A stretch of DNA of 64,000 bases from an uncultured virus (IMG/VR IMGVR_UViG_3300042691_048032) (lineage: Duplodnaviria > Heunggongvirae > Uroviricota > Caudoviricetes). How positions within the stretch are numbered: the stretch's first letter is position 1; each line of letters begins with the position of its first letter. Below the pieces are notes generated by a model that had not been told where the DNA came from, did not search any database, and saw nothing but the letters and a program-made list of their open reading frames with translations. Positions 12,368 to 46,178 of this stretch are shown piece after piece. The translations under genes were made by a program, and so were the position numbers. The stretch is from the IMG/VR virus record IMGVR_UViG_3300042691_048032, one strand, 5' to 3'.

Positions 12368-12435
12368 TGTTGCGCCAGCGGAACCCCTGCTGGGGGTATG
12401 TTTCCGAAAGTGATTCCGACCGGAGGAAAAGTTTC

Positions 12436-14950: not shown

Positions 14951-16216
14951 ATGGACCAAGAGATCAAGCAGTTCGTGGAGGCCGAGGAGAAGCGCATGTA
15001 CTCCGAGGAGAGCCGCACCGAACTCGCCGACCAGGGAATGGCCATGCCCGACGGCTCGTACCCGATCAAGGACGAGGCCGACCTCCGCAACGCCATCCAG
15101 GCGTACGGCAGGGCGAAGGACAAGGAGGCCACCAAGGCGCACATCATCAAGCGCGCCCGCAAGCTCGGCCTGGACGAACTGATCCCGGAGGGCTGGATGG
15201 GGATGGGCAAGTCCGGCGACGAGGACGACGTGGAGGACAAGGACGAGGAGTCCGAGGACGAGAAGGCCGTCGTTCGCGTCGACGCCGCTGGGATGGTCAA
15301 GTCCTGCGCCAAGGGCAAGGTCGCCGATTGTGGCTACAAGAAGGGCGACAAGGTTTGCGGCAAGTGCGGTGCGATGGCCGTGATGACGAAGATCTCCGGT
15401 GACGCCGACTTCGGTGTCGGCATGGAGCGCGAGATGGACGAAGAGGCCCCCGACGAGGACCAGGCCCTGTCCCGCCTCAAGAAGAAGCCGAAGAAGCCGA
15501 TGGGCGACACCACCAGCGACACCACCGAGTCCGAACTCGTCCGCCAGGCCGGTGGAAGCAAGATGAGGCTCGAGAGGATGAAGAAGATCGGCGTGAAGGA
15601 CGCGTCCGACGGCCACTTCATGTGCGCCTTCGAGCGCAAGGTCCTCGCCCCCGAGTCGCCGGCGTGCGAGGGCTGCAAGGGCGGGTGCTTCCCCGTCAAG
15701 GGCGGCCTCGACATCCTCGAGATCGAGGCGATCGCGGAGAAGCAGTACGACGCAGACGTGATCGACTCGGGCTACAGCGACATCTACGACAGGTTCGTCG
15801 TCGACCTGCGCTGCAAGGACGGTCAGATCAAGGAGGCGTTCTACGACGGCTCCGGCAAGGACTGCGGCTGGCTCCCGCTCGAGGAGAACGACCTGGCGAT
15901 CGCCGAGGATGCCATCTCGCCCGACGAGGCGATCGACATCGCCGAGGGCTTCATCGAGGGCAAGAGCCTGACGATCACCGTGAGTTCGTACGAGGGTGGG
16001 ATCTCCTACTGCGTCGAACTCGAGGGCAAGGACGGCTACTCGTACGACGTGTTCGTCGACCCGGTGGAGGGCAAGGTCCTCGGGGCCGACCAGTGGGAGT
16101 ACGAGACGTCGGCCGTTTCGCCGTCGCAACAGAAGGACGACGCCATCATGGCGAGCCTGATGGAGTTCGAGGCGTTGAGCGCAGAGGAAGAACTCCGCGA
16201 GAAGGGCCTCATCTGA
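14951..16216 (+). CDS. head-associated protein: PDGSYPI domain, Cys clusters and PepSY-like repeats
   Basis: AMPDGSYPIKDEADLRNAIQAYGR; ISPDEAIDIAE...YCVELEGKDG...VFVDPVEGKVL. Confidence 0.7.
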   Translation: MDQEIKQFVEAEEKRMYSEESRTELADQGMAMPDGSYPIKDEADLRNAIQAYGRAKDKEATKAHIIKRARKLGLDELIPEGWMGMGKSGDEDDVEDKDEESEDEKAVVRVDAAGMVKSCAKGKVADCGYKKGDKVCGKCGAMAVMTKISGDADFGVGMEREMDEEAPDEDQALSRLKKKPKKPMGDTTSDTTESELVRQAGGSKMRLERMKKIGVKDASDGHFMCAFERKVLAPESPACEGCKGGCFPVKGGLDILEIEAIAEKQYDADVIDSGYSDIYDRFVVDLRCKDGQIKEAFYDGSGKDCGWLPLEENDLAIAEDAISPDEAIDIAEGFIEGKSLTITVSSYEGGISYCVELEGKDGYSYDVFVDPVEGKVLGADQWEYETSAVSPSQQKDDAIMASLMEFEALSAEEELREKGLI

Positions 16217-16229
16217 GGAAGGGAGCGTC

Positions 16230-16532
16230 ATGAAGAAGGTAATGAAGCAGGTCGCGAGGAAGGGCGAGCCGGTCGTCATCGACCTCGGCCCGTTGCCGAC
16301 CGTCGAAGCCGAGGCTGAAGAGGCCAAGGCCGAAGAGGTCGTCGCCGAGCCGAAGGCCGAGGAAACCGAGGTCGCCCCCGAAGCCGAAGCGAAGGTGGAC
16401 GAGCAGCCGGTGGCGGAACCCGCCGCCGAAGAGGCCGAGAAGCACGTGTGCGACGACGCCTGCGACCACGCAGAAGAACCGGCCCCCAAGCGTTCGCGCA
16501 AGAAGCAGGCCGAACCCTCAGACGCCGAATAG
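16230..16532 (+). CDS. acidic low-complexity protein
   Basis: AAGGGAG RBS; E/A/P-rich. Confidence 0.7.
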   Translation: MKKVMKQVARKGEPVVIDLGPLPTVEAEAEEAKAEEVVAEPKAEETEVAPEAEAKVDEQPVAEPAAEEAEKHVCDDACDHAEEPAPKRSRKKQAEPSDAE

Positions 16533-16540
16533 GCAAGGCG

Positions 16541-19339
16541 ATGGACGCCGACAGGCGCATCGAGACCGCCAGGGCGCGGTCATCCTTCGCATCCGAGTCG
16601 AGGCTCGTCGCCAAGAGGGACGAACCGATGCTCGCCGACAACCCCGAGTGCGACTTCGCGCCGGTCGACACCAAGGATCGCTGGGACATCAAGTCCGAGG
16701 CGATCGCGTCGGCTGTCTCCACGAGGACGAGGCAACTCGTCGAGTCGCTCCTCGCTAAGGCGGCGCGCCCCGGGATCGGCGCTATGAACGCCGTCAAGAA
16801 GGGCGTGGCCGTCGTCGACGAGGACGGCAGGCTGCGCTGCCCCCCGGGAACCCCGAACGCCATGGAGTTCACCGACAACCTCGGGACCAACTGTGGCATC
16901 CCCGGCGCGAGGGTCGCCGCGTCGTCGATCGGCACCGTCGCCGGAGTCGTCGGGTCGGAGAAACTCCCGAGAATCGGCGCTTCCGAGATCGCCAAGAACA
17001 GGTCGGGGGAAGTGGCAAAGCGCTCCGCCCGCACCCTGCTCGCGGAGGGTACGAGGAAGTTCCTTTCAAGGAAGAAGGGCAAGGGCGAAGACTCCTCGGC
17101 GTGGAGGGAGGCTTTCAGTTCCCTGAGCAGCCCCGGCGAGGGTTTCTCGTTCGACATCGTTCTCGGCGAGAACGCAACGGACGGGTACGCAATAGCGAGG
17201 CCGGGCAGGGGTATCGCCGTGATGGCGGAAGGGCTGTTCGACGAGAACGGCGAGCCGGCCGAGGAGGGGGCGGTTCAGTTGGCGAGGATGATCTCCGCAA
17301 ACGCCGACGAGATACTCACCCCAGCCAGCGTTGAAGTTGACGGAAAGAAAGTGACGGCCGAGAGGGTCGTCCTCGGTGGGTGGCACTCAGACAAGGCCCA
17401 CAATGCGTCCGGAGAACTCGTTGACATGGACGGAGTCGTCGTCACCGATGGCGATAAGGCCGCAGACCTCAACGAGGCGCGCGCGGCCGGGCTTGAGGTG
17501 TACGGGTTCGTCTACTTTGACGTGTCGGACGTGTTCTCGGAGGACATTGGCGACACGGGTGCGCACGAGATCGGCAAAGCAAGGAATCAACAGTCCGTCG
17601 CCAACCTCAGGCTCATCGGCGAGGGCAACTTCGACGGGGTCAACATCGACGACATCAACAACGGTCTGACCGGGGCTTTCATTGACACCAGCGGCACGGG
17701 GGCCGACCTCCTGCCCGAGGACGCCTTCGACAGGACGGTTGCGTCAGCCGTAAGGGCGTTTGCCAAGGACGGGCCGCTGGAGAAGGCGATCGGCTCGATC
17801 GGCGGGATGACCATGGACATGGACAACTTCACCCCGGAGCAGGTGGAGCAAATGCTCGGCTACCTGAGGCGGGCGCCCGGCTTCGAGTGGATCGACCCGA
17901 GCGACGAGTCCCACATGGCCGCCGCCATCTCCCAACTCGCCGACAACCTCGTGTTCCTGATGGATCAGACGACCGAAGACCAGCGCAAGACGTGGTCTAG
18001 GTGGTACGACATCGCGAAGTCATTCAACGACAGGGTGGCCAAGGAGACGGGGGTGTCCGAAAGGACGATGGCGGCGGTCATCGCCTCACTGTCGCCCCAG
18101 AAGGACTGGGACCAGAACACGGCGATGGCGGAGCACCTTGCACGCCTCCTGTCGGACGAGGACATCGAGCTGTCGGAGCGGGTTTCCGAACTCGCCCACC
18201 GGTACGCCCTCGCGGAATGGTTGAGGCGACAGGGGACAGGCAGGGGGAGTTACGGGGGCAGGATCTCGGGGCTGGAGAAGAAGATCTCCGAATCGGAGGC
18301 CAAGATCAAGGCTGCTTCCGGCAAGGACGACAGAGGGTCGGTAAGGACAGTCGCTGGCGAGACCGCCAAGATCGCCAAGATGAGGGCGGAGGTAGACGAC
18401 ATCACCCGCGAGATGGACGCGGACAAGGAACCGGTACTGGGCGACTTCCTCGGTCGCAACCTGATGGGCATGAGCGACCTCAATGCCTCGGCCGCCATCC
18501 GCGCCCACTCGGAACTCGAGGGTGGTGCCTATCTCGGTATGCCCGACTCCCCGCCGAAGACGAAGAAGAAGGGCGAAGAACAGGCATCTATGTCAAGATT
18601 GCGCCCGTACACCACCGTGTTCGGGGACGGTGCCCCAGGCGACCACACCCTCGTCCCCAAGGACGGGACGGTGATGGCGACGTCCTTCGCTACCTATGCG
18701 ACGGCCGTGAAGTTGTTCAGGTCCGATGGCGACCCGGCGACGATCGACAGGCTCCTGAACGGGAGCAAGGTGAGGTCGTTCTTTACCAACATCCTCATGC
18801 CCAACGACGAGACAAACAGGGATGTCACCATCGACACCCATGCAGTGGCGGCCGAACTCCTGACCCCCGTCAGCGCCAATCACATCATCACCGACCTTGC
18901 CTTCACGCATGTTGACGGCCTTGGTACGGCGAGGGCCTACCCCGCCATGAGGGCCGCGATGATCGCCGCGGCGATCAGGTGGCAGGATAAGACGGGTGAG
19001 AAGTACCTGCCGAGGCAGATCCAGTCCATCACGTGGGAGAAAATGCGGGACTTGATCCCGCCGTCAACGAAGAAGTTCGTTGTCGACAGGATGGCCCAGC
19101 TGCAGTCGCTCGCCAACGGCCCCAAGGCCGACCCGAGGTTCATCGGCGCGAAGAAGGGCGAGGCGGTCCTTCGGTTGGTTCGTGCCGCGACGATAGACCT
19201 GAAGCAGGCCGCGGAGGCGAGGGGCAAGAAGGTGACCAGGGAGCAGTTGTTGCTGGAGGTCGCCCAAGACCTCGGCCTCCCCGTCGGCGTCACGAAACTC
19301 CCGAGGGCGAGTAAGGCGGCCGCCCCAGAAGAAGTTTGA
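16541..19339 (+). CDS. large multidomain protein with SAM-lyase-like and HhH-glycosylase-like (DUF7178-type) regions
   Basis: LGGW...YFDVS...AHEIGKARNQQSV; WYDIA...VIASLSPQKDWDQN...KVRSFFTNI...VTIDTHA...QIQSITW. Confidence 0.6.
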   Translation: MDADRRIETARARSSFASESRLVAKRDEPMLADNPECDFAPVDTKDRWDIKSEAIASAVSTRTRQLVESLLAKAARPGIGAMNAVKKGVAVVDEDGRLRCPPGTPNAMEFTDNLGTNCGIPGARVAASSIGTVAGVVGSEKLPRIGASEIAKNRSGEVAKRSARTLLAEGTRKFLSRKKGKGEDSSAWREAFSSLSSPGEGFSFDIVLGENATDGYAIARPGRGIAVMAEGLFDENGEPAEEGAVQLARMISANADEILTPASVEVDGKKVTAERVVLGGWHSDKAHNASGELVDMDGVVVTDGDKAADLNEARAAGLEVYGFVYFDVSDVFSEDIGDTGAHEIGKARNQQSVANLRLIGEGNFDGVNIDDINNGLTGAFIDTSGTGADLLPEDAFDRTVASAVRAFAKDGPLEKAIGSIGGMTMDMDNFTPEQVEQMLGYLRRAPGFEWIDPSDESHMAAAISQLADNLVFLMDQTTEDQRKTWSRWYDIAKSFNDRVAKETGVSERTMAAVIASLSPQKDWDQNTAMAEHLARLLSDEDIELSERVSELAHRYALAEWLRRQGTGRGSYGGRISGLEKKISESEAKIKAASGKDDRGSVRTVAGETAKIAKMRAEVDDITREMDADKEPVLGDFLGRNLMGMSDLNASAAIRAHSELEGGAYLGMPDSPPKTKKKGEEQASMSRLRPYTTVFGDGAPGDHTLVPKDGTVMATSFATYATAVKLFRSDGDPATIDRLLNGSKVRSFFTNILMPNDETNRDVTIDTHAVAAELLTPVSANHIITDLAFTHVDGLGTARAYPAMRAAMIAAAIRWQDKTGEKYLPRQIQSITWEKMRDLIPPSTKKFVVDRMAQLQSLANGPKADPRFIGAKKGEAVLRLVRAATIDLKQAAEARGKKVTREQLLLEVAQDLGLPVGVTKLPRASKAAAPEEV

Positions 19340-19392
19340 CGGCTTGAATAAGTGTGCGTATCATTGACACCTGGCGACAGGGAGGAGAACCC

Positions 19393-19635
19393 ATGAACCG
19401 AGACGAAGAACCCCTCGACCACTACGACGACGACCCGTTCCACGACGTGCCGCCGCTCGGGGCGACTGACGAGGAAATGCTCGCCATGCAGGACGACGAG
19501 GACTTCCTCGCGCGTCTCCGGAAAGGCCGCGGCAACATAGACACGGACGAGGAGTTCGCCGCGCTCACCAAGCGCTTCAAGAATCGTCTCTCCGAGACCA
19601 TCGTTGCCAACAGGGAGGAATACGAAAATGGCTGA
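19393..19635 (+). CDS. small acidic protein (candidate immunity/partner)
   Basis: GGAGGAG RBS; D/E-rich. Confidence 0.7.
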   Translation: MNRDEEPLDHYDDDPFHDVPPLGATDEEMLAMQDDEDFLARLRKGRGNIDTDEEFAALTKRFKNRLSETIVANREEYENG

Positions 19636-19771
19636 TAGGAAGGGCAAGAAGAAAGCATCCGTCATCAGGATCGACGACTTTCGGGACCTTTCCGAGAAGG
19701 AGCAGGTGGGGCGCGTGAAGGACATGCTCCGCTCCCTCGGCAAGCCCGGCGGGAACGCCAAGCGGGACTAG
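19628..19771 (+). CDS. 47-aa basic protein (not in the ORF track)
   Basis: Manual translation MADRKGKKKASVIRIDDFRDLSEKEQVGRVKDMLRSLGK...; overlaps the upstream stop. Confidence 0.55.
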   Translation: MADRKGKKKASVIRIDDFRDLSEKEQVGRVKDMLRSLGKPGGNAKRD

Positions 19772-19781
19772 GATTCGCCCC

Positions 19782-21950
19782 GTGCGCACCGAGAAGATCG
19801 TCACCAGCGACCCCTACGCGGTCGTGGGCTCCGCCGTGAAGACGGTGTCTGCGACCTCCGTGCGGTCCAAGGCCGACTGCGGGTGCGGTTGTGGCGACAA
19901 GGGCAATACCGCAACGGTTGGGGCGGTATCGCGCGGGAGGATCAACCCCGACAGGGTCGCGCTCTCGCACCTCGCCAAGGGCATCGGCCCGATAGCCGGT
20001 CGCAAGAACATCGTCGACCTCAAGGTGGCCCTGAGGATCGCCGACGAGTCGGACTCGAGGACGCCCTTGCACGGCCCCGACGAGATGGTCCTGCCCGTCA
20101 GGTCAAGCCTCGTCGGCACCAAGACCGGACTTGTTTCTTCCCGCAGTAGGGCGGGCAGGGCGGCGCAGGCACTCGCCTCCTATGTCATACCCGGCGACAT
20201 GTCGAGGGTGAGGAGCCCCATCAGGTCAACCGTGTACCGCGCGCTGACGCCGGGTGGTGGCAGGGGCGGTCTCGTCGGCCGCATCGGCGGTGAGCAGATA
20301 ATCAACAGGTGTCCCCCGGGTTTCGAGCACGGCGGCAGGTTCGCAAACTCCACGTTCACGAACTGCGGGAGCCAACTCTTCGAGGCGGTCCAGGCGATAG
20401 CCGAGGCGGCCCAGGGAGCCGGGCGGGCCGGGCGATTGAGGGTCGACAACACGCCGGCGCCCTCGATCCTGCGCGGGGCACGAGTGTCCGCGGGCAAGTA
20501 CACCGGCGACGCAATCGCCATCTCCAGGGCCGCAAACGTCGCCCGCATGGGTGCGCCGTCGCCGAAGAAGAGGGACGAGTCAGTAAGGGCGGTCGTTTCC
20601 GCTGCCAACTCGTCCGAATCGGCCTTCTCAAGACTGGTGCGGGCCGACGGTGTCGTGTTCAGCCCGGTAAGCGACCTCAAGAGGATCGCGAAACAGCGCA
20701 AGAACCCCGACATGGAGGGTGCGACGTGGGTGACCGCACTCAACTCGCCCCAATCCATCGGCGGCGACGAGGTGGCCCTCCTCGGGGCCGGCATCAGGAG
20801 CATCAGGTACGCGGTCCCCGGGGACGGCGAGATCAGGGTGGACTCCACGAAGCCGCTCGGCCAGGCGCGGATCAACGCCCTCATCAGGAAGATGCAGGCG
20901 GCCCGCTCCAAGGGCGACGAGAACGGCTCGGCGCTGAGGGCCATGGTGCGAGAGTCCAACGGCGACCTCGTCTACTCGGAGTCATTCCCCAACGTCGACA
21001 AACCCAACGAGATGGTCGTGATCGCCAGGGGCAAGGAGAGGCGCACCGTGCCGAGGTGGGTGTACGAGGCTTGGTACTCCGACAAGTCGTCGGGCAAGGA
21101 CAAGTCCTCCGGCTGGACCGTGGTCGACACCGTCACCAATGTCTCCTCGCAGAACGAGGTCGGGGCGAACGTGGTCGCCGAGGCGACCGCCGAGTCGTTG
21201 TCGGCGCTCTCTTCGTTCGACAGGGGCAAGGCCATCGCCAAGGGCAAGTCATCCGACTTCGGCGCGGGCAGGAAGTCCGTTCTCATGAAGGACGGGACGA
21301 ACTGGGTCGTCCACCAGCCCGACCAGGACTCACACATCGGTGTTGTTGTCGGCAACGACATCGCAACGGCACTGGGCCTGCAGGCCCCGAACTCGTACAT
21401 CGCCGGCGATGCCAAGTCAAGGTACGCGGTCGTGGAGTCGCCGAACGAACTGAACGGCGTCAAGATCTCCAAGGACGGCTCCACGGCGGACATCCCCGGC
21501 GAGGAGCTGGCGAGGATCGCCCTCGTTGACTACCTCACGGACAACAGAGGACGAACCCCGGCGACGGTCCTCCCGTCCAAGGGCAAGGGCAACGGCGCGG
21601 TTTCGATGTCGTCGCCGAGGAACGCCCTCGCCGGGCGCGGGGGTGCGAAGAAGCCCGCGGACGCCGGGTTCGCCGACTACCTGAAGCAGGACGGCTCGAG
21701 CAAGTGGCTCGCCGAGAAAGCCGCGAAGATGGAGAGCGTGAGGCAGAAGATCGCCGCCATGTACGAACAACTCCTTGAGCGTGCCGAGCAGTTTGACTGG
21801 GATGCGTACATCGACAGGCTGTCGATCGCCGGCCTGACCGACGGCGAGAAGACCCACCTCGACACAATCAAGGTTCTGTACGAGTACAGGCTGAAGCAGA
21901 TGAGGTCGTCCAGGAAGTCGTTCCTCACGACCCTGGGGGTCGTGTCGTGA
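19782..21950 (+). CDS. large protein with C-terminal degenerate HipA/PI3K-like kinase fold
   Basis: VGNDIATALGLQAP...LARIALVDYLTDNRGRTPATV (catalytic DR-x-x-x-N motif degenerate). Confidence 0.6.
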   Translation: MRTEKIVTSDPYAVVGSAVKTVSATSVRSKADCGCGCGDKGNTATVGAVSRGRINPDRVALSHLAKGIGPIAGRKNIVDLKVALRIADESDSRTPLHGPDEMVLPVRSSLVGTKTGLVSSRSRAGRAAQALASYVIPGDMSRVRSPIRSTVYRALTPGGGRGGLVGRIGGEQIINRCPPGFEHGGRFANSTFTNCGSQLFEAVQAIAEAAQGAGRAGRLRVDNTPAPSILRGARVSAGKYTGDAIAISRAANVARMGAPSPKKRDESVRAVVSAANSSESAFSRLVRADGVVFSPVSDLKRIAKQRKNPDMEGATWVTALNSPQSIGGDEVALLGAGIRSIRYAVPGDGEIRVDSTKPLGQARINALIRKMQAARSKGDENGSALRAMVRESNGDLVYSESFPNVDKPNEMVVIARGKERRTVPRWVYEAWYSDKSSGKDKSSGWTVVDTVTNVSSQNEVGANVVAEATAESLSALSSFDRGKAIAKGKSSDFGAGRKSVLMKDGTNWVVHQPDQDSHIGVVVGNDIATALGLQAPNSYIAGDAKSRYAVVESPNELNGVKISKDGSTADIPGEELARIALVDYLTDNRGRTPATVLPSKGKGNGAVSMSSPRNALAGRGGAKKPADAGFADYLKQDGSSKWLAEKAAKMESVRQKIAAMYEQLLERAEQFDWDAYIDRLSIAGLTDGEKTHLDTIKVLYEYRLKQMRSSRKSFLTTLGVVS

Positions 21951-22231
21951 GAAAGGTCGCGTTCGTCAACAACGCCGACGGGGGCAAGTTCGCCATCCTC
22001 GTTGAGGGCGACGGGGGCGTGGACGCCATCGGGTTGTCGGGGCACGGCAAGGAGTGGGCCGCCTGGGTGGATGGTCTGCCGTTCAGGGAGCGCAGGCTCA
22101 TAAGCGACGTCCTGTGGTCCCTCTCCGAGGCGCAGTCCGTGGACGGGCCGCGAGTCCCGACCAGGACCGAGCGCACCGAGATCACCACCGTCATAAACGG
22201 GCAACAGGCGACCCGGCTGTCAGGCACTTGA
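21947..22231 (+). CDS. small hypothetical protein
   Basis: GTGA coupling to the pseudokinase gene. Confidence 0.7.
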   Translation: MRKVAFVNNADGGKFAILVEGDGGVDAIGLSGHGKEWAAWVDGLPFRERRLISDVLWSLSEAQSVDGPRVPTRTERTEITTVINGQQATRLSGT

Positions 22232-22297
22232 CATGGGCGCCACCGCGCCGGTGGTAGTGTCCTCTCGTCAAGTAACTGCTCAGGGCACAGCGGGGTC

Positions 22298-28200: not shown

Positions 28201-31200
28201 GCTGGCCGCCCTGGACGCGGCGAAGAGCGGAGACGATGTCAAGAAGGCGTACCAGCAGATGGCGAACGCCGAGTCGCGGATAAGCAACCTCAAGGCGGTA
28301 CGGGACGCGTACGGCAACGCCCTCAAGGACTACAAGCAGAACACCGCCGTCCTGAACGTCGGCGGCGATTCGTACGACGTCCCGAAGAACACCGTCATCT
28401 CGACGGATCTGCCCAGCCTGGAGAAGGCCACCGACGTCTCGGCGGCCGTCGCGCCCATGTTCCCCGACGGAACCTCGTTGGGCATCTACAAGGATTCCTC
28501 GGGCCAGTACAGCATCATGAAGTTGGACGACGCCATCGCCGCCGGGATGCCGGCCCCCGAGGCGGTCTTCTCCAGCAACGGTGTCGGTGCGATCCCGACG
28601 GTCGACACGACGGCGTCGATGGATCTGAAGACCGCGCCCGGGATGCCCAAACTTCCGGACGGTTACAAGGGGACGCAGGTCCTCGGCGTCAACTCCTTCG
28701 ACGGAACGGCGGTCGGTCAGTACGTGCCGACACCGATGCTCCCGGACGGCTCCAACCCGCCGATCGACGAGAACCACCCCCTCGTGAAGGAGTGGGCGGC
28801 GAAGGTCTCCGACGGCACGGCAGACATCAGCGACGTCCCGAACGACCTCCTGAAGGAGGTCGTGTGGGCGAACACGCAGGGCGGCGGTGGCGGGAGTTCG
28901 GGTCGCTTCAAGCTGTTGTCGAAGGCGAGCGGTTACAACGACATCGGCAAGTCCCCCAAGGACCAGACACAGAGGTTCATGGACACGGCCACCGGCCAGA
29001 CGTTCGTCATCAAGAGCGCAACAAGGAACGACCAGGAGGGGATCCGAGAACTGTTCGGAAACCAGGTCATGCAGCTCCTCGGCTTCCCGTCATCGGGCGG
29101 GCGCACCGCCGGCCCGGTTGAGAAGTCGCCGAACAAGTTCCCGCCCGGACACCCAGAGCACGACCCCGAGGCGGAGCAGGTCGCCGTCCTCATCGAGTCA
29201 TCGGAGATGCTCTACGACGGCAAGCCGCTCGGACACGTCAGGAGCCTGCCGAAGGACGAGCGGGCCGACATCGTCGCAAGGCTTACGCCGGAGTCCGTTG
29301 GTGCCGGCCTGGTCATGGACTCCCTGTTCAGGTATTACGACCGACAGGAGGACAACTGGATCGCCGTCGAGTTGCCCGACGGGACGGTCGCGTACCACCC
29401 GATCGACCACGGCAACGCCTTTGGGCCGTTCAAGGGGCACAAGTTCTACGACAAGGACGGCAAGAAGCTCGGCAAGTCGCAGAGTTCGCCCGCCGACGAG
29501 GACAAGCTCGGACTCATGTTCTCGGGCCTCGACGGTGACGGCGTGTGGAACTTGGCGAAGGAGTCAATGACGACGCCGGAGCGGAGGTCCGCCTTCGCAG
29601 AGGGCGTACTCCACGCCGTGAGGAAGGCCGAGTCAACCGACTACGCGGAGGCCGGCGAGCGCCTCATCTCCGAGCAGAACCTGACCGGGCAGTTGGCCGA
29701 GAGGGTCAGGACATCCGCCAAGGAACTCGAAGGCAAGAAGGGGCGCCTCGACTCGTATGTCGACCCGATGCTCAGGGAGTTGGGCATGACCGACGACGAG
29801 ATCGCCTCGATCAGGGCGAAGGTTGACACGGACCTCGGCGGCGGCCTCGCCAAGGCCTCGCAGGCACCGAAGAAGGCCGTCCCCGCGTCGCCCGCGTCAA
29901 AGATGGTGTCGCCGACACCGATCAAGGGCGAGGAGGCCTTCGGGAACAGCCCGATCGCGGAGGGGGCCAAGACGGTCACGTCGTCGCTCGACAGCGCCGT
30001 CGCCCTGCCAGGCAGCGTCCACTACACGAGCGTCGGCGCCGGCAGGCAGACGAAGGACGGCGTCAGGTTCGTCTCTTGGGAGACGAACAAGCCCGGCGAG
30101 CAGGTCGTTTCGGCAGGCATGACCCTCGACAGCGAAACCGCCAAGAAGTTGGGGGCGGCACTCACGAACGGCGTTGACCTGCAGGGCAACCCGGTCGAGG
30201 TGCTCAAGTCCGGCCTTGCCCACATCGGCATCCAGCTGAAGGGCGGGAAGTGGACCTACGGGGACACCCCGCCCGACAGCGCCACGCAGGGCATCGGCGA
30301 CTACGGCCCCGCCGGCGAGAGGTTCGTCATCGCCAGGCTCCAGGACGGCACGATCGTCTCCGTCAACTACAGCAGCATCGACCCGAAGCTCGCCTCCGGC
30401 TCCTCGTACTCAACGAGGGACGTTGCCCAGGTCATCTACACCGACGGCAAGCCCTCCCCGGAAAGGGTTGCGTCCTCGCTCTCCGCGATGGGCGTTTCCG
30501 ACCTCGGTTACGCCGGCGAGAACGACTGGAAGGGGCGCGCGGCCGAACTTCTGGTGAGGACATACGACAACGAACTCGCCAACTCGGGCGATCAGATAGC
30601 CCAGAGGCTCGCCCGCATCGCCTCCGAGTACGGCGTCACCCTCAACGACGTCGAGCCCTACCACGACAGCATGGGTCGCCTGAGGTACCGCCTCACCGAG
30701 GAGGCCTGGGATCGGGTCGTCCAGAAGAAGCCCGGACTCGGCAAGACGACGCACATCGCCAAGTCCATGAACAACGTCACCGACGGCGCCAACGTCGTCC
30801 GCGTCATCACCACCGGGGGCATGCTCTCCAAGCAGGAGCAGGTCCTCAGCGGTTCCGGCCTCGTGTCGGGTGCGGCCGTGGGCGGCGGCGGCGTGGGGGC
30901 GTCCCCGGGTTCCGACCTGACGACGGGCGGGGGACTCGGTCTGTTCATGACGCCGTACTCGGGCGACAGCGACATGGGCGGCCCCAACGGCGTGCATGCG
31001 CAATCCATCAGCTACTGGGGCGGCAGCGCCGCCGTCCATGTCGTTTACGACGGGCAGGGGATGATGAGGGATCTCGGGTGGTGGGCGCACGGACCCAGCG
31101 ACGGCCCGTACGGTGCGCTCAACGCCGCCACATACCACGGGCAGGCTGCGCTGAACAACCCGCAGTACGGAGGCGACTCCATCACGGCGATGGACAAGGG

Positions 31201-31456
31201 AATGGTGTTCGAGTTCCTGCCGAACGGATCCGCCGCCCTCGACAATGCGATGGGCGTCATAGTCAGCGCAACGGTCAGGACACAGATCATCGACGCGCTG
31301 AAGGCAAAGGGCATCACGCAGGTCAACGGGATCCCGCTCGAGAAGTTCGTCGTCTCCAAGTCGGCGAAGAAGCAGTTGACGGAGATGCTCGGCCCGCGCT
31401 GGAAGAAGGACTACTTCGGCTCTGTCGGCACCAAGCAATCAACGGGTACGGTGTAG
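22298..31456 (+). CDS. 3052-aa polyvalent protein with HipA/PI3-PI4K-like kinase and putative C-terminal ADP-ribosyltransferase-like domain
   Basis: FVIKS...RELFGNQVMQLLG...DSLFRYYDRQEDNW...PIDHGNAF; C-terminal GGMLS...GLFMT...EFL. Confidence 0.75.
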   Translation: MRKSRVEFSVLNRKAAIEASSVALGVRMASRLSTGRTTAFSHSTKGVPFVHTEQIAFSSSRPSDRVHQERLEILVKSADAEIAQARLRVGSAEPQILLWPERDGSFDFKKLASIGRRGKRTAQGFDPNAEDADGDMLVQDGTPWERPKVPGASKRGRRKPGKTRVAVASGLERVADRIDEAAERRRSRREERGSLRERIAGRLEGAADRLDKKPGQKPKKVRRSPGEAFGDYLYGTDRVKPSRERPEEPGVADETVAPETPSAPEKPDAEVKPEKPKTPVEDVTTTATAKEKLPGRVIGKPDEDKSFVAVAARNASARKEDAYGNESQAASVVHVVENADGKFVAVDDERLSAMDGAKPLFTFRDGGLTHVDGEKRKKSGKTVTSEQVEAAPGWSMDETYKGSAIDRLSTLENTYFYKNGGKQFEEGENAYVIETSDGKFYIVDEEKMQALGVEPIRAEKTGRGEFIYGTEPKQDFVPRKVEEPKPVGEIPGEPPMEKPSLPDVAEDAKSPKSKKPKLKGKQDGKYKTEKNAAKRADQLSAEDGKTRHVVEAPGGGYAVVDQERLDAMGVEAVSTHNGKKIDTPVPQGEPEPGFVPPTVEETEDVPVNLPSFLQPKPGEQEAGAGGIKPPAKWDWDGTREYAQSAIDAAEELGKQGKLEESRAVAKEAKKKIAANYAADETTSESLSALLDELEYYSKANKSQVLAKLNEDDSPYRRWMDFDSSYSEDSSYDLDELNDALRNIEDARKQLSDLPNDEKQALDESYDDMINRLMDSEEKIGKRRDLEEILQEEEEIASAVKGPEAKPAPEKPDTAAGKPRKTIGLDTAKSVMEERISIIRDIAEMDGEDEEEITDQVKQAFTETSSYLDTIAANFDQIVFDTPGSVASWAERMRERADATPDPQEADAYKIVAEVLDDNPNMSSAVQVKIQISALSFEVMSMGDKYEPGEDLLGSGPTNESVTKKLDEGAVGLAETLNATMSGKYDDDTIESMQSTFKEAVYVLESLTPDEKAVMGDNYDAALEGAKNNIEILERLKGTGEDIGEVAKRFWEEKAEIPSQGGDNNKEQEVLSKLVTDGWLDENGDLKATTEQAQVMLNAYRSGLLDGSFPPETMAAVVALEKAIKAKADKDPLDGDSPLPYKTSQYIDVASLEEQEIPGSEGDMWDVEGLQEQFSEFMDLAKKDLISYWADPEKGAGGTVSLTKSMDDDQVEQEFLKTIAALEMAVNAGVATNPGGELPVAKLQRIKTHYHNFQVMAGRGKYSPENSPNLTPIDRFNHLSPSGQQSFLKAMENNFRGLAADDPDISEEEIDDVVREAMVAYNGILGKKGKAKKAKKAKPPAEQMKDSVVDGPSPEPAKPKAGGKSIRVGNGDTLSVLSPDEAEKAGVPKFDPNTEAKFPEGLIVGYIGGDDPDEDVSAAIIEAQLKGHQLFMPGDYEEGSLFASSFSTSDGKRVTVLLDNKHPVWESEGGLDAIFPNLYDQAGTGDVSNWVNLGELRQDKSPKKGSPLHGKTVADFDSSDVEAASVKFGPEAMELRAAIKALGEDPYSIFVDDATGMAEDLDKIMQGRFGPNGGVLVKTKDGMYHVVSRNDWQEITSGLSDDERGEIGEVVHSSKPESMNWALKKDTGTWSNPSKKLSDIDWDSIPKDEATEALKAFLENTTQGGVGQIAFGDSMKAGGISHPYGGLSGYTLQTLIDEHQMAFDQAGEESDSPNPSHPLNIHQDGRWGVFAFEVANQSDLPAAGKRPVVMRIGGKDLDFALKHPEVFGQPLLRYDRDTAQTLGNASDGTASASSFTGDLSSAVDAMFDDSVVGSELLKNAVAWRLKLDNKASSYGGGISSVEKVIGEAEDRLKAMRVTVDAAKKIAAGDLSKDEDSLTLDDLKPYLAQVSPDIEDPDAFVGKLKSTVVRLDVSNRYAANMRMAEQDGLETEIGLKDRLANNPKSAKDMVNEEKDVQNQLDAATKDLDSALAALDAAKSGDDVKKAYQQMANAESRISNLKAVRDAYGNALKDYKQNTAVLNVGGDSYDVPKNTVISTDLPSLEKATDVSAAVAPMFPDGTSLGIYKDSSGQYSIMKLDDAIAAGMPAPEAVFSSNGVGAIPTVDTTASMDLKTAPGMPKLPDGYKGTQVLGVNSFDGTAVGQYVPTPMLPDGSNPPIDENHPLVKEWAAKVSDGTADISDVPNDLLKEVVWANTQGGGGGSSGRFKLLSKASGYNDIGKSPKDQTQRFMDTATGQTFVIKSATRNDQEGIRELFGNQVMQLLGFPSSGGRTAGPVEKSPNKFPPGHPEHDPEAEQVAVLIESSEMLYDGKPLGHVRSLPKDERADIVARLTPESVGAGLVMDSLFRYYDRQEDNWIAVELPDGTVAYHPIDHGNAFGPFKGHKFYDKDGKKLGKSQSSPADEDKLGLMFSGLDGDGVWNLAKESMTTPERRSAFAEGVLHAVRKAESTDYAEAGERLISEQNLTGQLAERVRTSAKELEGKKGRLDSYVDPMLRELGMTDDEIASIRAKVDTDLGGGLAKASQAPKKAVPASPASKMVSPTPIKGEEAFGNSPIAEGAKTVTSSLDSAVALPGSVHYTSVGAGRQTKDGVRFVSWETNKPGEQVVSAGMTLDSETAKKLGAALTNGVDLQGNPVEVLKSGLAHIGIQLKGGKWTYGDTPPDSATQGIGDYGPAGERFVIARLQDGTIVSVNYSSIDPKLASGSSYSTRDVAQVIYTDGKPSPERVASSLSAMGVSDLGYAGENDWKGRAAELLVRTYDNELANSGDQIAQRLARIASEYGVTLNDVEPYHDSMGRLRYRLTEEAWDRVVQKKPGLGKTTHIAKSMNNVTDGANVVRVITTGGMLSKQEQVLSGSGLVSGAAVGGGGVGASPGSDLTTGGGLGLFMTPYSGDSDMGGPNGVHAQSISYWGGSAAVHVVYDGQGMMRDLGWWAHGPSDGPYGALNAATYHGQAALNNPQYGGDSITAMDKGMVFEFLPNGSAALDNAMGVIVSATVRTQIIDALKAKGITQVNGIPLEKFVVSKSAKKQLTEMLGPRWKKDYFGSVGTKQSTGTV

Positions 31457-31459
31457 GAA

Positions 31460-31912
31460 GTGGCGACGAAGAAGACTCTCGGCTTCAACGACATCGTTGA
31501 GCAGTACCAGCGCGTTGCCCCATGGCCCGCCCGCGTCGTCCAGCCCGAGGACGGGGACGACGAGAACTTCCCCGAGATGGTCGAGATGTGGGACTCGTCC
31601 CACCCCATGGTCTGTTACAGGCTGGACAGCCCAACCGCCAAGGATGTCATGACGACGGGGACGATCGTCGCTGGGAACAATGGCGATGCGTGGATGGAGA
31701 TGCCCGAGCTCAACGACAGCATCCGCAGAATGATCCGCCCGACCTCAATCTCCAAGAACCCCAACGGCCCGATCGTCATAATGACCCTCGACCGCGCGGA
31801 GGACCTTGCCATCAGGCCGCTCGTGGTCAGCGACGCCGTCTGGTTGATGGGCGAGCCCGTCAACAGCATGAAGGAACTGATCGACTACATAGGGGAGAAT
31901 GACGTCCTATGA
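31460..31912 (+). CDS. hypothetical protein (candidate immunity/partner)
   Basis: Starts 3 nt after the giant gene; acidic. Confidence 0.7.
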   Translation: MATKKTLGFNDIVEQYQRVAPWPARVVQPEDGDDENFPEMVEMWDSSHPMVCYRLDSPTAKDVMTTGTIVAGNNGDAWMEMPELNDSIRRMIRPTSISKNPNGPIVIMTLDRAEDLAIRPLVVSDAVWLMGEPVNSMKELIDYIGENDVL

Positions 31913-32211
31913 GCGACATGGTTGCCTACATCCACAACAGGAACGAAGGATCGCAGGATGGCCCACTGGCCATGATCGTGCTGGAGGGCGGTCGCCTGCA
32001 GTTCTTCGCCCCCGCCGGCTCCCCGTTCTCATCCAAGGTCAGGAGCCTGAACATCAGGTCGGTCGACCTCGACGAGGAAGAGGCCGCCGACTACTTCGAC
32101 ACGTACGTAGACAGGTGGAACGGACAGAACCTGCACGCCTCCGTCGCACCCCTCGAGGGGGCGGAGGCGAGGAAGGCCGAGGTCACCAAGGCCAAATGGA
32201 GGAAGTCGTGA
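31909..32211 (+). CDS. hypothetical protein (candidate immunity/antitoxin)
   Basis: ATGA and GTGA couplings at both ends. Confidence 0.7.
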   Translation: MSDMVAYIHNRNEGSQDGPLAMIVLEGGRLQFFAPAGSPFSSKVRSLNIRSVDLDEEEAADYFDTYVDRWNGQNLHASVAPLEGAEARKAEVTKAKWRKS

Positions 32212-35200
32212 AGCCCGTCGACCGGCGCGACGACCGCACCGCCCTCACGAGGGAGCAGGCCGTCGCCGCGGCGAGGTCAACGGGCTGCGAGGGGGCGCAC
32301 GAGGTGGAGGGCGGCTGGATGCCGTGTTCGTCGCCCGAGGAACTCAGGCGTGTTTCCGCCTCAGCGGAGAGCGACTCGTGGCTTGAGTCGTCCGTGTCCG
32401 ACAAGGGCGGGGTCTCGCCGTCGGGCAGGAGGCGCAAGAGGCGTGTCCGCCGATGGGAGAACCTGGTGGAGAGGTCCTACGGAATGACGGGCGTACCGGG
32501 TCTGGGTGTCGTTTCCGCCCCTCCCGCCAAGCCGACGTCGCCGATGGGCGACTCCTACGCCTCGGGACCGTCCGGGGTCATCACGCTGACGGCCGAGGGC
32601 AAGGCGTTCGCGCCTTTCACCCCAGAGGTCGGCGACCCCGACGTGTACACCTCCCCCGACGCGGCGAGGATGCGGGCTAGGCAGGTCGGCTGTACGGGGA
32701 TCAGGAGGTACACCACGCCGTCGGGAAGGCAGGCGTGGATGCCATGCACCACCGGTGTCACCTTCGACAGGAACATGGGATACGGGGCGTACTCTCGTAC
32801 GGGGAGCCGCCTCGAGTCGGCGAGGGTCGAGCGGGAGGTGCGCAGGCAACTGAGGGCCGCCGGGTTCAGCGGCAAGAAGTCCGCCAGAAGGCTCGCCGCT
32901 ACGCCGGCGAAGCCCTCGGAGAGGATCTCGGGCTCCTCCGTCAACAAGCCCGGCTCGTCCGCCTCGGCGAGGAGCGCATCGGGGATCGTGCTCTCGGCGG
33001 AGCAGCAGAAGGCACTCGTCGTCAAGGCGAGGGAGCACAACGCCAAGATGCGCGAGGCGGGCAAGCAGAAGTGGTCGAGGACGTCGTCCGCCACGCTCAA
33101 GGCAGTCATGAGGCGTGGCATGGGGGCGTTCAGCTCGTCCCACCGACCCGACGTCTCCTCCCGCCAGCAGTGGGGAATGGGCAGGGTGAACGCGTTCTTG
33201 GTGATGCTCGAGACGGGCAGGCCGAAGAACCCGAGATACACGACGGACAACGACCTCCTGCCCAAGGGCCACCCCTGGAAAGAACGAACGGCCGGTGGTC
33301 AGTCCACCAAGAAGGAGCCGATCGACGCAGACAGGGACGGGTGGGTCGACGAGGGCAAGCCGACGAGGAGGTTCGTCGGTTTCAGCCTCCTCGGTCGCGC
33401 CGCTAGGTCGGGCGCGGCGAGGGCGAGGACGATGGACGTCGCCGGCTCCGGCGGTTCGAGGCGCGGCAAGAGGACCGTCCGCGTCTCGGCTGGGGGCGGC
33501 ATCGCCGGCAGGGCAAGGGCTAGGAGGTTGTCCAGAGAGATCGAGGGCACGGTGTCGCGCATCTCCGAGGGGAGGACGACGCGCCCCGACTTCAAGCCGA
33601 GCATCACCGGGAACGTCCCGAAGAGGATCTCGTCCGACAGGCTGAGGAGGCTGAAGCCCCAACGCGTGAACCACAACTCGCTCGTCGCAACGCAGAGGGC
33701 CTACCCGAAGGCTCCGATGCCCGAGGGCGAACACAGGGTCACCACGCTGAAGGAGCTCGGCACCGCCCCCGGGGGCGGCATCGGCAGCACGTTCGACCAC
33801 TTCAAGATCGGCTCCGGGGAGATCCCCGCCGAGAGGAAGGCACTCCACGAGGAGATCATCCAGTCGATCCTGTTCGGCGGCGGCAAGTGGTCGCCGAAGA
33901 GGCAGGAGAAACCCGCCGTGTGGTTCATGGGCGGGGGGCCGGCCTCGGGGAAGACGTTCCTGAGGCAGGGCGGCTTCTTCGACACGCCATCCCGTGGCGA
34001 GGCGGTCCACCTCGACGCAGACGAGATCAAGCAGATGATCCCCGAGTTCGACTCGCTCGTCAAGGAACTCACGGACGCGGGCATGGACCCGACCGCCGCG
34101 GCGTCCGCCGTCCACTCCGAATCCACGTACATCCAGAGGCTTGCCATGGCCAGGGCCGCGGAGCAGGGCTTCCACATCGTCCTGGACAGCACGGGCGACG
34201 GTGGGCCGAAGAGCTTCCACTCCAAGATCGACGTCCTCAAGGCGGCCGGCTACAAGGTAAAGGGCAGGTTCGCAGACGTCTCGCTCGGGAAGGCGCTGTC
34301 GGACGCGAAGACCAGGCAGAAGGAAACGGGGCGCGGAGTACCCGACGACGTCGTCATCGACACCCACATCGACGTGGCAAGGGCGGTGCTGTACGGACTG
34401 CAGTACGACATCTTCGACGACCTGGAGATAGTCAGCAACGAAAACCACTCGTCCCCAACGACCATGGCCGCGTTCAAGGACGGCGTGCTCGTTGTCCACG
34501 ACCCCAAGAAGTGGTCAGAGTTCATCAGCAAGGCCAAACTCGCCTTCACCAATGACTACGAGAGCGACTACTTCGGTGGGGCGGACAGGGGCGCACGGGG
34601 CCGGTCGCCTCGCTCCAAGCCGAGGAAGACGAGGGTAAGTGGTGTCGACGGGGCGGACATGCTCGTCGCCGAGCCGGTTGAGTCTCTTGCTGACGCCCTC
34701 CCGAAGACGGGCATTGACTACCGCAAGGTGAAGGCAGTACCGGCGGAGAAAAGGGCCGCGATCGCGAAGGCCTACAATGGCCTGCCCGACAGGTCGCCGG
34801 AGGCGAAGGCCGCCTACGACGCCCTCGAGGCCGAGATCAGGGAGCAGTTCCGCATGTTGACCGATGACCTCGGGGTGGAGGTCCAGTTTGTCGACGAGGA
34901 CCCGTATGCCGACGCCGTGGAGATGATGGACGACGTGGAGAACAACGGTGTCCTGAAGGTGCTGAAGAGTTCTGCGACCGGTGGCCACCCGTATTGGTCG
35001 GACGAGACCAACGACATGTTCCGCGCCGTCCACGACGCCTTTGGGCATGCCGCCACGGGGCGCGGCTTTGACAGGCACGGCGAGGAGGCGGCCTACCAGG
35101 CCCACCGCTCCATGGTCAAGGACGCCCTGGCGCGTCTCGCCCTCGCCACGGAGACGAGGGGGCAGAACTCATGGCTCATCGAGAACGGTGAGTTCCCCGA

Positions 35201-35663
35201 GCAGAAGATGGCACTCCTCGACGAGGAACTCGCCAAGCAGGCCGGCGGTCTGCCGCAGATGCCGATGATGGCGGCCGTCCCCGACGTCGACCCCCAGCAA
35301 GAGGCCCAGTACGACGTCCCCGCAACGGCCGACCAAGACAACGCCTTCGAGAGCACGAGGTGCCACCACGTGTCCGGCGGCAGGAGGGTCGCAGCCACCG
35401 ATGCGGAGACCGACAGGTCGTCGCTCTACTCGTCGCTCGGCGAGGACGTCAGACTGTCCCCCGAGTCGAGGCAGAGGCTGTACGAGTTCGCCGCCCGCGG
35501 GGGTCAGACCCTCGAGGGGTCGGGCTTCGACGAATCCAACCCCAAGATCGCCGCGTACTTCAAGAGGGCGAAGAAATCGGTCAAGAAGATCGGCAAGGGC
35601 ATCGTGGCGGACATCCCGACCTCGGCGGTCGAGTCGGTCCCCGACACCATCGGTGCGGGATAG
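32208..35663 (+). CDS. multidomain protein: 2x WMPC (DUF3721-like), SHRP domain, zeta-toxin-like P-loop kinase, FRAVHD domain
   Basis: GC-x-G...WMPC twice; RRGMGAFSSSHRP...QWGMGRVNAFL; MGGGPASGKT...LDADEIK...VHSES...VLDSTG...GRGVP; NDMFRAVHDAFGH...GEE...ETRGQNS. Confidence 0.8.
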   Translation: MKPVDRRDDRTALTREQAVAAARSTGCEGAHEVEGGWMPCSSPEELRRVSASAESDSWLESSVSDKGGVSPSGRRRKRRVRRWENLVERSYGMTGVPGLGVVSAPPAKPTSPMGDSYASGPSGVITLTAEGKAFAPFTPEVGDPDVYTSPDAARMRARQVGCTGIRRYTTPSGRQAWMPCTTGVTFDRNMGYGAYSRTGSRLESARVEREVRRQLRAAGFSGKKSARRLAATPAKPSERISGSSVNKPGSSASARSASGIVLSAEQQKALVVKAREHNAKMREAGKQKWSRTSSATLKAVMRRGMGAFSSSHRPDVSSRQQWGMGRVNAFLVMLETGRPKNPRYTTDNDLLPKGHPWKERTAGGQSTKKEPIDADRDGWVDEGKPTRRFVGFSLLGRAARSGAARARTMDVAGSGGSRRGKRTVRVSAGGGIAGRARARRLSREIEGTVSRISEGRTTRPDFKPSITGNVPKRISSDRLRRLKPQRVNHNSLVATQRAYPKAPMPEGEHRVTTLKELGTAPGGGIGSTFDHFKIGSGEIPAERKALHEEIIQSILFGGGKWSPKRQEKPAVWFMGGGPASGKTFLRQGGFFDTPSRGEAVHLDADEIKQMIPEFDSLVKELTDAGMDPTAAASAVHSESTYIQRLAMARAAEQGFHIVLDSTGDGGPKSFHSKIDVLKAAGYKVKGRFADVSLGKALSDAKTRQKETGRGVPDDVVIDTHIDVARAVLYGLQYDIFDDLEIVSNENHSSPTTMAAFKDGVLVVHDPKKWSEFISKAKLAFTNDYESDYFGGADRGARGRSPRSKPRKTRVSGVDGADMLVAEPVESLADALPKTGIDYRKVKAVPAEKRAAIAKAYNGLPDRSPEAKAAYDALEAEIREQFRMLTDDLGVEVQFVDEDPYADAVEMMDDVENNGVLKVLKSSATGGHPYWSDETNDMFRAVHDAFGHAATGRGFDRHGEEAAYQAHRSMVKDALARLALATETRGQNSWLIENGEFPEQKMALLDEELAKQAGGLPQMPMMAAVPDVDPQQEAQYDVPATADQDNAFESTRCHHVSGGRRVAATDAETDRSSLYSSLGEDVRLSPESRQRLYEFAARGGQTLEGSGFDESNPKIAAYFKRAKKSVKKIGKGIVADIPTSAVESVPDTIGAG

Positions 35664-35789: not shown

Positions 35790-37151
35790 ATGTCCAACGA
35801 CAAAGCACGAATCAGCGAACTGCAGAACGCGCTTCGCAAGAAGATGGCCGACAACAAGGCCATCGCCGATTCCTTCAAGGTCGAGGAAGGCACCGTCGTG
35901 GTGTCGACCGAGCAGAAGGCGGCCTTCGACGCCAACATGCGCGACATCAAGGAAATCAAGGGCCTGATCGAGGGCCTCGAGTCCATGGGAGAGGTCAGCT
36001 CGTGGTCGAGCGAGCCCGCCGGCGACTCGGTTGGAGCAGCCGCGGCCGCCGGTTCGGCGGCCCGCCCCTCGTACGGCGCCAAGAGCCTCGGACAGCTGTT
36101 CATCGACTCGCCCGAGTTCAAGTCGCTCAACGGCGGCAAGAACGGCGCGAACATGCCCAGCCCGTTCATCCTCAACTCCGGAGACATCACCGGATCCGGC
36201 TGGGGACAGAAGGACGTGTACAGCGGCTTGCTCGACACGACCGGCCTTTCGTTCACCGGTTTCGGAACCCGTGAGCGCGACCCGCTGGTGATCCCGCCGA
36301 TGAGGACCCGTCGCGTCCGCGACCTCTTCCCGGCCCGCACCACCACCGCGGCCGTCATCGAGTACTTCCGCCAGCTGGGCTTCACCACCCCGCCGGTGGA
36401 TCCGGCAACCGGCTACCGCGACACCAACGCCGCCGCCCCCGTGGCACAGCGCAGCGGTGGAGCCTTCGCCTCGAAGCCGCAGTCGTCCATGATCTTCGAG
36501 GGTCACCAGGCCCCCGTCCGCACGCTGGCCCACTGGGAAGCCGCGCACCGCAACGTGCTGGCCGACGAGCCCCAGCTGCGCTCGATCATCGACAACGAGC
36601 TCCTCTACGGTCTCCGTCTGCAGGAGGACTACCAGATCCTCCAGGGCGACGGCACCGGCGAGAACCTGCTCGGCGTGCTCGAGACCCCCGGCGTGCAGGA
36701 GTACGCATGGGCCGATGGAGCCACGACCCCCGTCCCGGACACCAAGGCTGACGCGCTTCGCCGCGCCGCCACCCTGGCGTTCTTGGCCTACTACGAGCCG
36801 ACCGGCGTCGTTCTCCACCCGAACGACTGGGAAGACATCGAGCTGACCAAGAACACGCAGGGCACCTACCTCATGGCCGTGTCCATGCAGGTCGGCTCCG
36901 AGGCGAGGATCTGGCGCATGCCGGTCATCGACACCCCCGCCATCCCCGAGGGCACGGCTCTCGTCGGAGCCTTCGGCACCGGCGCCCAGCTGTACGACCG
37001 CGAGCAGGCGAACATCAGGATCAGCGAGCAGCACGCGGACTTCTTCGTCCGCAACGCCATCGTCATCCTCGCCGAGCAGCGTCTGGCCCTGGCCGTCAAG
37101 CGTCCCGAGGCGTTCGTCAAGGTGGACTTCACCACCGGCGCACCCGACTGA
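35790..37151 (+). CDS. major capsid protein (HK97 fold with N-terminal delta domain)
   Basis: Coiled-coil N-terminus, RVRDLFP, KPQS, TLAHW, QILQGDGTGENLLG, VLHPNDW, FVRNAIVILAEQRLALAVKRPEAFV. Confidence 0.95.
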   Translation: MSNDKARISELQNALRKKMADNKAIADSFKVEEGTVVVSTEQKAAFDANMRDIKEIKGLIEGLESMGEVSSWSSEPAGDSVGAAAAAGSAARPSYGAKSLGQLFIDSPEFKSLNGGKNGANMPSPFILNSGDITGSGWGQKDVYSGLLDTTGLSFTGFGTRERDPLVIPPMRTRRVRDLFPARTTTAAVIEYFRQLGFTTPPVDPATGYRDTNAAAPVAQRSGGAFASKPQSSMIFEGHQAPVRTLAHWEAAHRNVLADEPQLRSIIDNELLYGLRLQEDYQILQGDGTGENLLGVLETPGVQEYAWADGATTPVPDTKADALRRAATLAFLAYYEPTGVVLHPNDWEDIELTKNTQGTYLMAVSMQVGSEARIWRMPVIDTPAIPEGTALVGAFGTGAQLYDREQANIRISEQHADFFVRNAIVILAEQRLALAVKRPEAFVKVDFTTGAPD

Positions 37152-46119: not shown

Positions 46120-46178
46120 GCTACCACCTTACATTCGCAGGGGATGTGGGCAGGGCAGATGCTAGTAGATGGAGAACC

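Follow-up and report, generated by a model that had tools for sequence, protein, structure and literature searches.

In the genome of an uncultured tailed phage (IMG/VR record IMGVR_UViG_3300042691_048032; Caudoviricetes), the genes for the prohead protease and the major capsid protein (MCP) are separated by about 21 kb of co-oriented genes, among them giants of up to 3052 amino acids. The window analysed here is the first 64 kb of that record, which is 122,957 nucleotides (nt) long, has direct terminal repeats and is rated complete. The HK97-type protease (12367–14847, + strand) has its protease part at residues ~25–190, with a Peptidase_S78 match at residues 47–189 (E value 1.6e-10), and a long tail of about 630 amino acids, and the HK97-fold MCP is encoded at 35790–37151 on the same strand (Phage_capsid, E value 1.2e-40). 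Eleven + strand open reading frames (ORFs), amounting to 6,853 amino acids and with a G+C content at third codon positions of 0.78–0.95, lie between them. Overlaps of 4–8 nt are found at four junctions (80/47, 722/94, 150/100 and 100/1151, the ORFs being named by their size in amino acids), and the 3052/150 junction has a gap of 3 nt.

Relatives were collected with the MCP, which matched 335 related IMG/VR stretches, 80 of which were kept (65–100%). A protease search on 50 of those 80, mostly longer contigs, gave 45 matches, and the interval was rebuilt in 33 of these, near-duplicates and one wrapping record being left out; the tree and the slot counts refer to 34 genomes, i.e., the window phage and these 33 relatives. 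The distance from protease start to MCP start is 23,423 nt here and 19,400–36,368 nt in all 33 relatives, so the insert is not due to chance, and the large ORFs that the first-pass annotation had placed between protease and capsid are indeed there. The closest cultured MCPs are those of Gordonia phages GMA6 and Chidiebere and Brevibacterium phage Cantare (46–48%). A tail sheath gene was detected in the genome, and two WhiB-family genes (window 6907–7119; genome 96317–96508) indicate an actinobacterial host. Neither of the two integrase types sought, tyrosine (PF00589) and serine (PF07508), was found in 13 genomes, those of the window phage and 12 relatives. On these grounds this is probably a virulent, contractile-tailed phage of Actinobacteria.

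The interval combines a fixed skeleton with exchangeable bodies. The skeleton, present in 33 of 33 relatives, includes the protease domain, a Cys/His-rich domain of about 190 amino acids, the families of the 421- and 722-amino acid proteins, and the first ~220 residues of the last giant. The Cys/His-rich domain occupies residues 465–652 of the protease tail here and is a stand-alone gene of about 220 amino acids in most relatives. Protein A (421 amino acids; 14951–16216, +) has a PepSY-like C-terminus (E value 2.5e-7) and Cys-rich segments, and its modules are reordered in relatives. A search of 50,697 phage records gave no match to protein C (722 amino acids; 19782–21950, +). Four places hold variable giants, namely the protease tail and slots B, D and E. 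The slot B protein (932 amino acids; 16541–19339, +) consists of a head with a two-Cys motif, a removable cassette and a DUF7178 domain; the slot D protein (3052 amino acids; 22298–31456, +) has an acidic motif, a variable middle, a kinase-like domain and a C-terminal domain at residues ~2811–3052; and the slot E protein (32208–35663, +; about 1151 amino acids, or 1155 if the ATG at 32196 is used) has a head of about 220 amino acids bearing DUF3721, a DUF5824-like segment, a zeta P-loop kinase and a C-terminal phrog_3170 domain. The bodies of the 932- and 3052-amino acid proteins occur in just two of the 33 relatives, and even close kin differ by entire domains: G002 lacks residues 155–386 of B, an indel of the whole cassette, and G001 has pentapeptide repeats where D residues ~620–1060 differ. 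Matches in the other slots of relatives include zeta, NUDIX, DnaJ, exonuclease, PI3/4-kinase-like and DUF3626 domains, and many slot pieces gave no domain match (19 of 30 in one scan, 26 of 29 in another). The variable bodies make up 15–20% of each genome. The synteny predicted earlier, in which the cargo varies while the flanking protease and MCP are fixed, is therefore present, since the skeleton is found in all relatives and the B and D bodies in two. The first-pass annotation overlooked that a large share of the interval is conserved skeleton (the 421- and 722-amino acid proteins, the E head and the 220-amino acid domain), so that effectors would account for only part of it.

Several of the slot proteins share an N-terminal motif with two Cys residues. 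An iterated profile of B residues 88–122 matches 78 slot proteins (34 B, 34 C and 10 D), always starts within the first 236 residues, and has no match in 520,309 control residues. In the window genome the motif is present on B (residues 89–121) and C (residues 176–198) only. When profiles were trained on one slot at a time in order to limit circularity, the one from the 10 D motifs alone recovered 33 of 34 B and 28 of 34 C proteins. A second, acidic motif of the DxDxDG type is located at residues 118–160 of D and is carried by 14 proteins of the interval, distributed over protease tails, D and E. This motif also had 11 control matches, mostly just downstream of the MCP (L062, L049, L014 and others), and an ORF past the MCP that bears it is possibly a head-associated protein. 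In the MCP itself, a K-S/T site near residue 100 is conserved; it resembles the HK97 cleavage site and is likely to mark the cleavage of a delta domain.

In many relatives the protease is physically joined to a giant. It opens a frame of 2,500–4,800 amino acids in 33 of the 45 matching records, and on the tree the fusions form one clade of 23 of the 34 genomes (support 99/99), in which the tail is a polyvalent body of 2,300–4,600 amino acids. Among 14 scanned fusions, 11 include both MPTase-PolyVal and ArdcN, a 12th genome has both in the next gene, and UvrD helicase is found in 12; a Pfam search of the window's proteins gave no match to MPTase or ArdC-N. In 17 of the 23 fused protease genes (e.g., L091, L092 and L107) there is a run of 9–11 A or T at codons 528–553, with a run of 8 nt in one more and none at this place in 11 unfused protease genes; it is a candidate slippage site that may yield both a short protease and the long fusion.

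The DUF7178 domain of B (residues ~460–850) was modelled from 17 sequences (residues 464–838; predicted local distance difference test, pLDDT, 72.5). The model aligns with 3n0u over 187 of 209 residues (Z 8.7, root-mean-square deviation 3.8), followed by 7u07 (Z 8.4) and 1xqp (Z 7.2), values that are moderate for a helical fold. Its only full-domain matches are 8-oxoguanine glycosylases (OGG) and a queuine-salvage enzyme, the other rows being mostly coiled-coil; the VIA lists for B are dominated by a coiled coil at residues 557–631. A helix-hairpin-helix (HhH)/OGG glycosylase-like fold is thus supported by the model. A Foldseek search of the PDB with B gave nothing at E ≤ 0.001, and its BFVD matches include phage proteins of 120–139 amino acids with TM scores of 0.59–0.69 on the target, the aligned part not being specified. 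The B cassette (residues ~155–386) is modelled with a beta-alpha-beta-beta-alpha-beta core, a topology that was compared with the fold of Svi3-3, an S-adenosylmethionine (SAM) lyase. Within residues 190–380, G279-x-W281, D327 and Q350/351 fit a SAM lyase by eye, and in insertion-free homologues the spacing is 13, with Asp in place of Glu. In Svi3-3 the corresponding residues are G56, Y58, E69 and Q104, i.e., Gly-x-aromatic, an acidic residue 13 positions later and a late Gln, as given in the available excerpt of PMC7877911. The SAM lyase family PF23780 did not match the cassette, and no SAM lyase was among the structure matches listed.

Residues ~2200–2515 of D align with the PI3K/HipA-like kinase domains of four relatives (hhalign 92.4%, E value 5e-7), one of which scores PF00454 at 1e-6; the direct Pfam E value for D is 0.17, and the profile of the relatives' kinases matches PI3K/mTOR catalytic loops weakly (best E value 0.002). 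The catalytic residues K2239, D2348, N2353 and D2370 are kept in D and invariant in three sequences, which supports the prediction of a PI3K/HipA-like kinase. The C-terminus of protein C aligns with the same domains (hhalign 75.2%, and 24.5% in another comparison) and lacks the catalytic motifs, and is likely a pseudokinase. In E, the zeta kinase scores far above the cut-off (PF06414, E value 4.5e-23; 82 bits versus 22.3) and includes a P-loop. E residues 839–1042 share 49% identity (E value 5e-42) with part of Rhodococcus phage E3 gp205, which is labelled 'structural protein' in GenBank and also weakly matches the DUF7178 domain of B (9e-3). For D residues 2811–3052 there was no match to any Pfam, PHROG or atlas family, the model pLDDT there is below 50, and the score against the DUF3626-like domain of relatives (see below) is 1.2% (hhalign). 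The model of D residues 2196–3052, from four sequences, has a pLDDT of 39, and Foldseek and VIA gave no usable match with it. Sequence searches of the PDB with the cassette, kinase, C and CT0 profiles returned nothing significant, and the homologues found for the B cassette and the D C-terminus are all close kin. Of the enzymes proposed in the first-pass annotation, the zeta-toxin-like domain is accordingly confirmed, and the glycosylase-like fold, the HipA-like kinase and the HipA-like pseudokinase are supported; the SAM lyase agrees by eye in topology and residue spacing but not in any library or structure match, and the ADP-ribosyltransferase (ART)-like domain, sought in the D C-terminus, found no support in the searches made.

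Small ORFs are interleaved with these proteins. The acidic 100-amino acid ORF at 16230–16532 (+) is present in the two closest relatives only, and the basic 47-amino acid ORF at 19628–19771 (+) in one of 33. Behind variable C-termini lie only the ORFs at 19393 and 31460/31909. The first (80 amino acids, acidic; 19393–19635, +) follows the DUF7178 C-terminus and is a candidate partner, the pairing being kept in G001 and G002 only. The second (150 amino acids, acidic; 31460–31912, +) follows D and is the window's best candidate for an immunity gene on gene order; the same C-terminus precedes it in G001 and G002, and in L130 that C-terminus is followed by a similar ORF of 144 amino acids. It is accompanied by a 100-amino acid ORF (31909–32211, +) in G001, G002 and L130. 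The 94-amino acid ORF at 21947–22231 (+) is the N-terminal module of a slot D head that has become a separate gene, as it aligns with the first 80 residues of the D giants of six relatives (hhalign 96.9%, E value 1.4e-10; BLAST agrees), and was for this reason rejected as an immunity gene. Stop readthrough from this ORF into the 3052-amino acid gene, which is in frame here with no further stop, was discarded because the two are out of frame in G001 and G002, as was the idea that the small-gene families are one repeated adaptor domain (best hhalign 7.9%). The small genes had been described as cognate immunity genes, which is tenable for those at 19393 and 31460/31909 but not for that at 21947.

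The link between C-terminus and small gene is more evident in the relatives. In 27 of 27 ORFs, a C-terminal domain of about 320 amino acids with a weak relation to DUF3626 (hhalign 59.6%) has a member of a single small-gene family behind it; seven of these ORFs stand alone, displaced by a new C-terminus, and the seven genomes without the domain, including that of the window, also lack its small gene. Judged by gene arrangement, this is the behaviour of a polymorphic toxin. One of the incoming C-termini is a RelA/SpoT-type synthetase (Pfam E value 0.004; head-morphogenesis PHROGs E value 1.7e-24), paired with its own gene of about 80 amino acids in three of three relatives. The polymorphic-toxin layout, with a fixed N-terminus, a variable C-terminus, a linked small gene and orphan cassettes, is thus clear in the relatives but weak in the window.

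The portal gene (43748–45928, - strand) matches portal and head-morphogenesis PHROGs and is fused to a MuF-type domain without a toxin extension, so that MuF is, as first noted, on the portal; no MuF or head-morphogenesis match was found at the N-termini of the interval proteins. The gene is 6.6 kb past the MCP, back to back with the + strand terminase, the two together spanning 43748–47489. In G004, G014, G039 and G044 a MuF-like C-terminus was seen by eye directly upstream of the protease, and the window genome seems rearranged at this point relative to them. Other neighbours, also read by eye, are a ribonucleoside-triphosphate-reductase-like gene immediately past the MCP on the opposite strand (37607–39526), a cytosine-methyltransferase-like sequence divided among three or four successive ORFs, in which inserted segments recur (40061–43545), and a row of ParB-like, phosphoadenosine-phosphosulfate-reductase-like and second ParB-like ORFs (53068–55967), possibly a DNA-modification cluster.

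We propose, with a probability of roughly 0.6, that the interval encodes an array of swappable effectors that are loaded into the head and injected, with small partners protecting the producing cell, and that it is likely a variant of phage polyvalent/MuF-type cargo loaded without MuF. The head operon would be expressed late, and the conserved heads or the protease fusion would recruit the giants into the prohead alongside the maturation protease, which may trim some of them there. The fragments would be injected into the next actinobacterial cell, where their targets would be DNA, nucleotides, proteins and wall precursors, so as to disarm or take over the host, while the small partners would neutralise toxic C-termini in the producing cell during assembly. 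The predicted payload of this phage is a zeta-type sugar-nucleotide kinase, a PI3K/HipA-like kinase, a domain with the HhH glycosylase fold and possibly a SAM-cleaving cassette.

Several observations weigh against this proposal. The profile trained on B recovers five of 10 D and none of 34 C motifs, that trained on C recovers C only, and the D and E giants of this genome are without the two-Cys motif. Trimming by the protease is only partly supported, because only 12 of 44 giants (about 4 expected) have a K-S site like that of the MCP ahead of the two-Cys motif, whereas none of 34 C proteins does, nor does the B protein of the window. The protease fusion is a single event, restricted to one clade from which the window genome is absent. 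The genomes that show the 27 of 27 linkage are kin, and on our reading of the tree the linkage reflects about three independent displacements. The small genes of the window co-occur with their neighbours only in three to four close relatives; strong linkage of toxin and partner is confined to the relatives. The SAM lyase and ART calls are without a library match, and the ejection of a 3052-residue chain is costly.

The giants might instead be late intracellular effectors, active in superinfection exclusion or in the late shutdown of host defences, which stay unpackaged and owe their place in the head operon to its promoter. A late-operon position is by itself no proof of packaging, the zeta kinase could help lysis, and with no integrase in 13 genomes the immunity genes would act only in an infected cell. 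We consider this explanation unlikely, since it leaves aside that 23 of 34 genomes have a giant covalently joined to the prohead protease and that E3 gp205 is labelled 'structural protein', and since ArdC-N and MPTase are treated as early-acting, co-transferred domains in the available part of Iyer 2017 (PMC5512222). The fusion of the protease to polyvalent domains and the label on the homologue would, on annotation, favour loading into the virion.

Virion proteins could also be carried on the outside, the conserved modules being outer capsid decorations or head-fibre anchors that display the bodies on the exterior, from where they would act on the cell wall or surface. Two-Cys motifs could form disulfides there, wall precursors are the substrate of zeta kinases, and the control matches of the DxDxDG-type motif lie mostly just downstream of the MCP. 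Helicase, ArdC-N, NUDIX, RelA/SpoT, exonuclease and sigma-HTH domains, however, require cytoplasmic substrates, and the prohead protease works inside the prohead, as in HK97, so that outside display appears quite improbable. We give equally little credence to packaged cargo whose small genes encode chaperones for folding or loading, or domains that have split off, rather than immunity proteins. The ORF at 21947 is such a split head, the s1 small-gene family is basic rather than acidic, and none of the small-gene families matches a known immunity protein (the best is a weak unnamed PHROG, E value 0.012); on the other hand, the small genes go with the C-terminal domain rather than with the head, even where that domain has been orphaned, which is the pattern of polymorphic toxin loci.

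Beyond the head-loaded effector array preferred here, we speculate, with considerable doubt, that a clade of lytic actinophages of 120–170 kb loads as many as four giant polyproteins with effector functions into a head of the HK97 type independently of MuF, via a two-Cys tag of about 25 residues or a protease fusion; that the pseudokinase protein organises or ejects them; and that their C-termini turn over as toxin–immunity cassettes, which would make this the first polymorphic toxin system of virulent phages. For the targeting of large proteins into HK97-type heads without MuF, the clade offers a short candidate tag. The fused and split protease are a natural pair of states that makes loading testable and could serve to load chosen proteins into capsids. 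In addition, the variable bodies would be a rich source of new anti-host enzymes, many with a likely partner, and 335 IMG/VR stretches match this family.

In comparison with known systems, B, D and E are each large polypeptides with disparate domains (the cassette and DUF7178; the kinase and others; zeta and phrog_3170), encoded among the virion genes of a terminase–portal phage. In this they resemble the polyvalent proteins, which the available part of PMC5512222 presents as giant multidomain ORFs among late genes with predicted packaging and injection, and with which the clade shares MPTase and ArdC-N, helicase, zeta kinase, RelA/SpoT, GNAT and NUDIX domains. Unlike those described there, the clade has four cargo slots behind a conserved skeleton and a shared two-Cys motif, and the giants of the window lack MPTase and ArdC-N, domains that are common in polyvalent proteins and not obligatory. 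A fixed N-terminal module, a variable C-terminus, a small downstream ORF and location in the head module are features in common with MuF toxins, as far as the excerpts of Jamet 2017 (PMC5576092) and PMC12226406 extend, and the RelA/SpoT-type C-terminus with its small gene in three relatives resembles the Apk2/IapK module in the latter. MuF toxins are described in the same excerpts as confined to temperate phages; in the clade, by contrast, the toxin domains are not on MuF, which is bare on the portal, the 13 genomes yielded neither a tyrosine nor a serine integrase, and orphan cassettes of domain and small gene are present. On predicted domains and gene order the interval is therefore of the polyvalent-protein kind and not a MuF toxin, because the toxins have no MuF and the genomes no integrase.

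Among cultured phages, GMA6 and Chidiebere of Gordonia and Gilgamesh of Streptomyces have the closest MCPs (33–48%) and a head module enlarged by 10–15 kb of additional genes, and such inserts include an annotated VIP2-like ART and an ORF of 4,624 amino acids. The latter is Gilgamesh gp48 (L083:16979-30853), a hypothetical protein located between the portal-MuF and capsid genes. The insert of Chidiebere differs from that of the window in being between portal and protease, whereas those of GMA6 and Gilgamesh look alike by position, although their proteases are unannotated. MuF-VIP2 fusions and Burro gp27 are presented as head-module cargo of Microbacterium phages in the excerpt of PMC7302621. 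The C-terminal domain of E (49%) is shared with E3 gp205 and gp107-like proteins of cluster C mycobacteriophages, and DUF7178 weakly with gp205; unlike the slot giants, gp205 is a single mid-size gene, which adjoins the tail-fibre gene in E3. In the literature searched there was no account of the clade, of N-terminal protease fusions or of the two-Cys motif, although the architecture supplements of Iyer 2017 may list such fusions. Large head-module inserts in cultured actinophages are thus already known (PMC7302621, in the part available), and what appears to be new, from the genomes compared here, is that the insert lies behind the protease, that its skeleton offers several slots, that slot proteins share a two-Cys motif, that the protease can form the N-terminus of a giant, and that orphan cassettes occur in phages which appear to be lytic.

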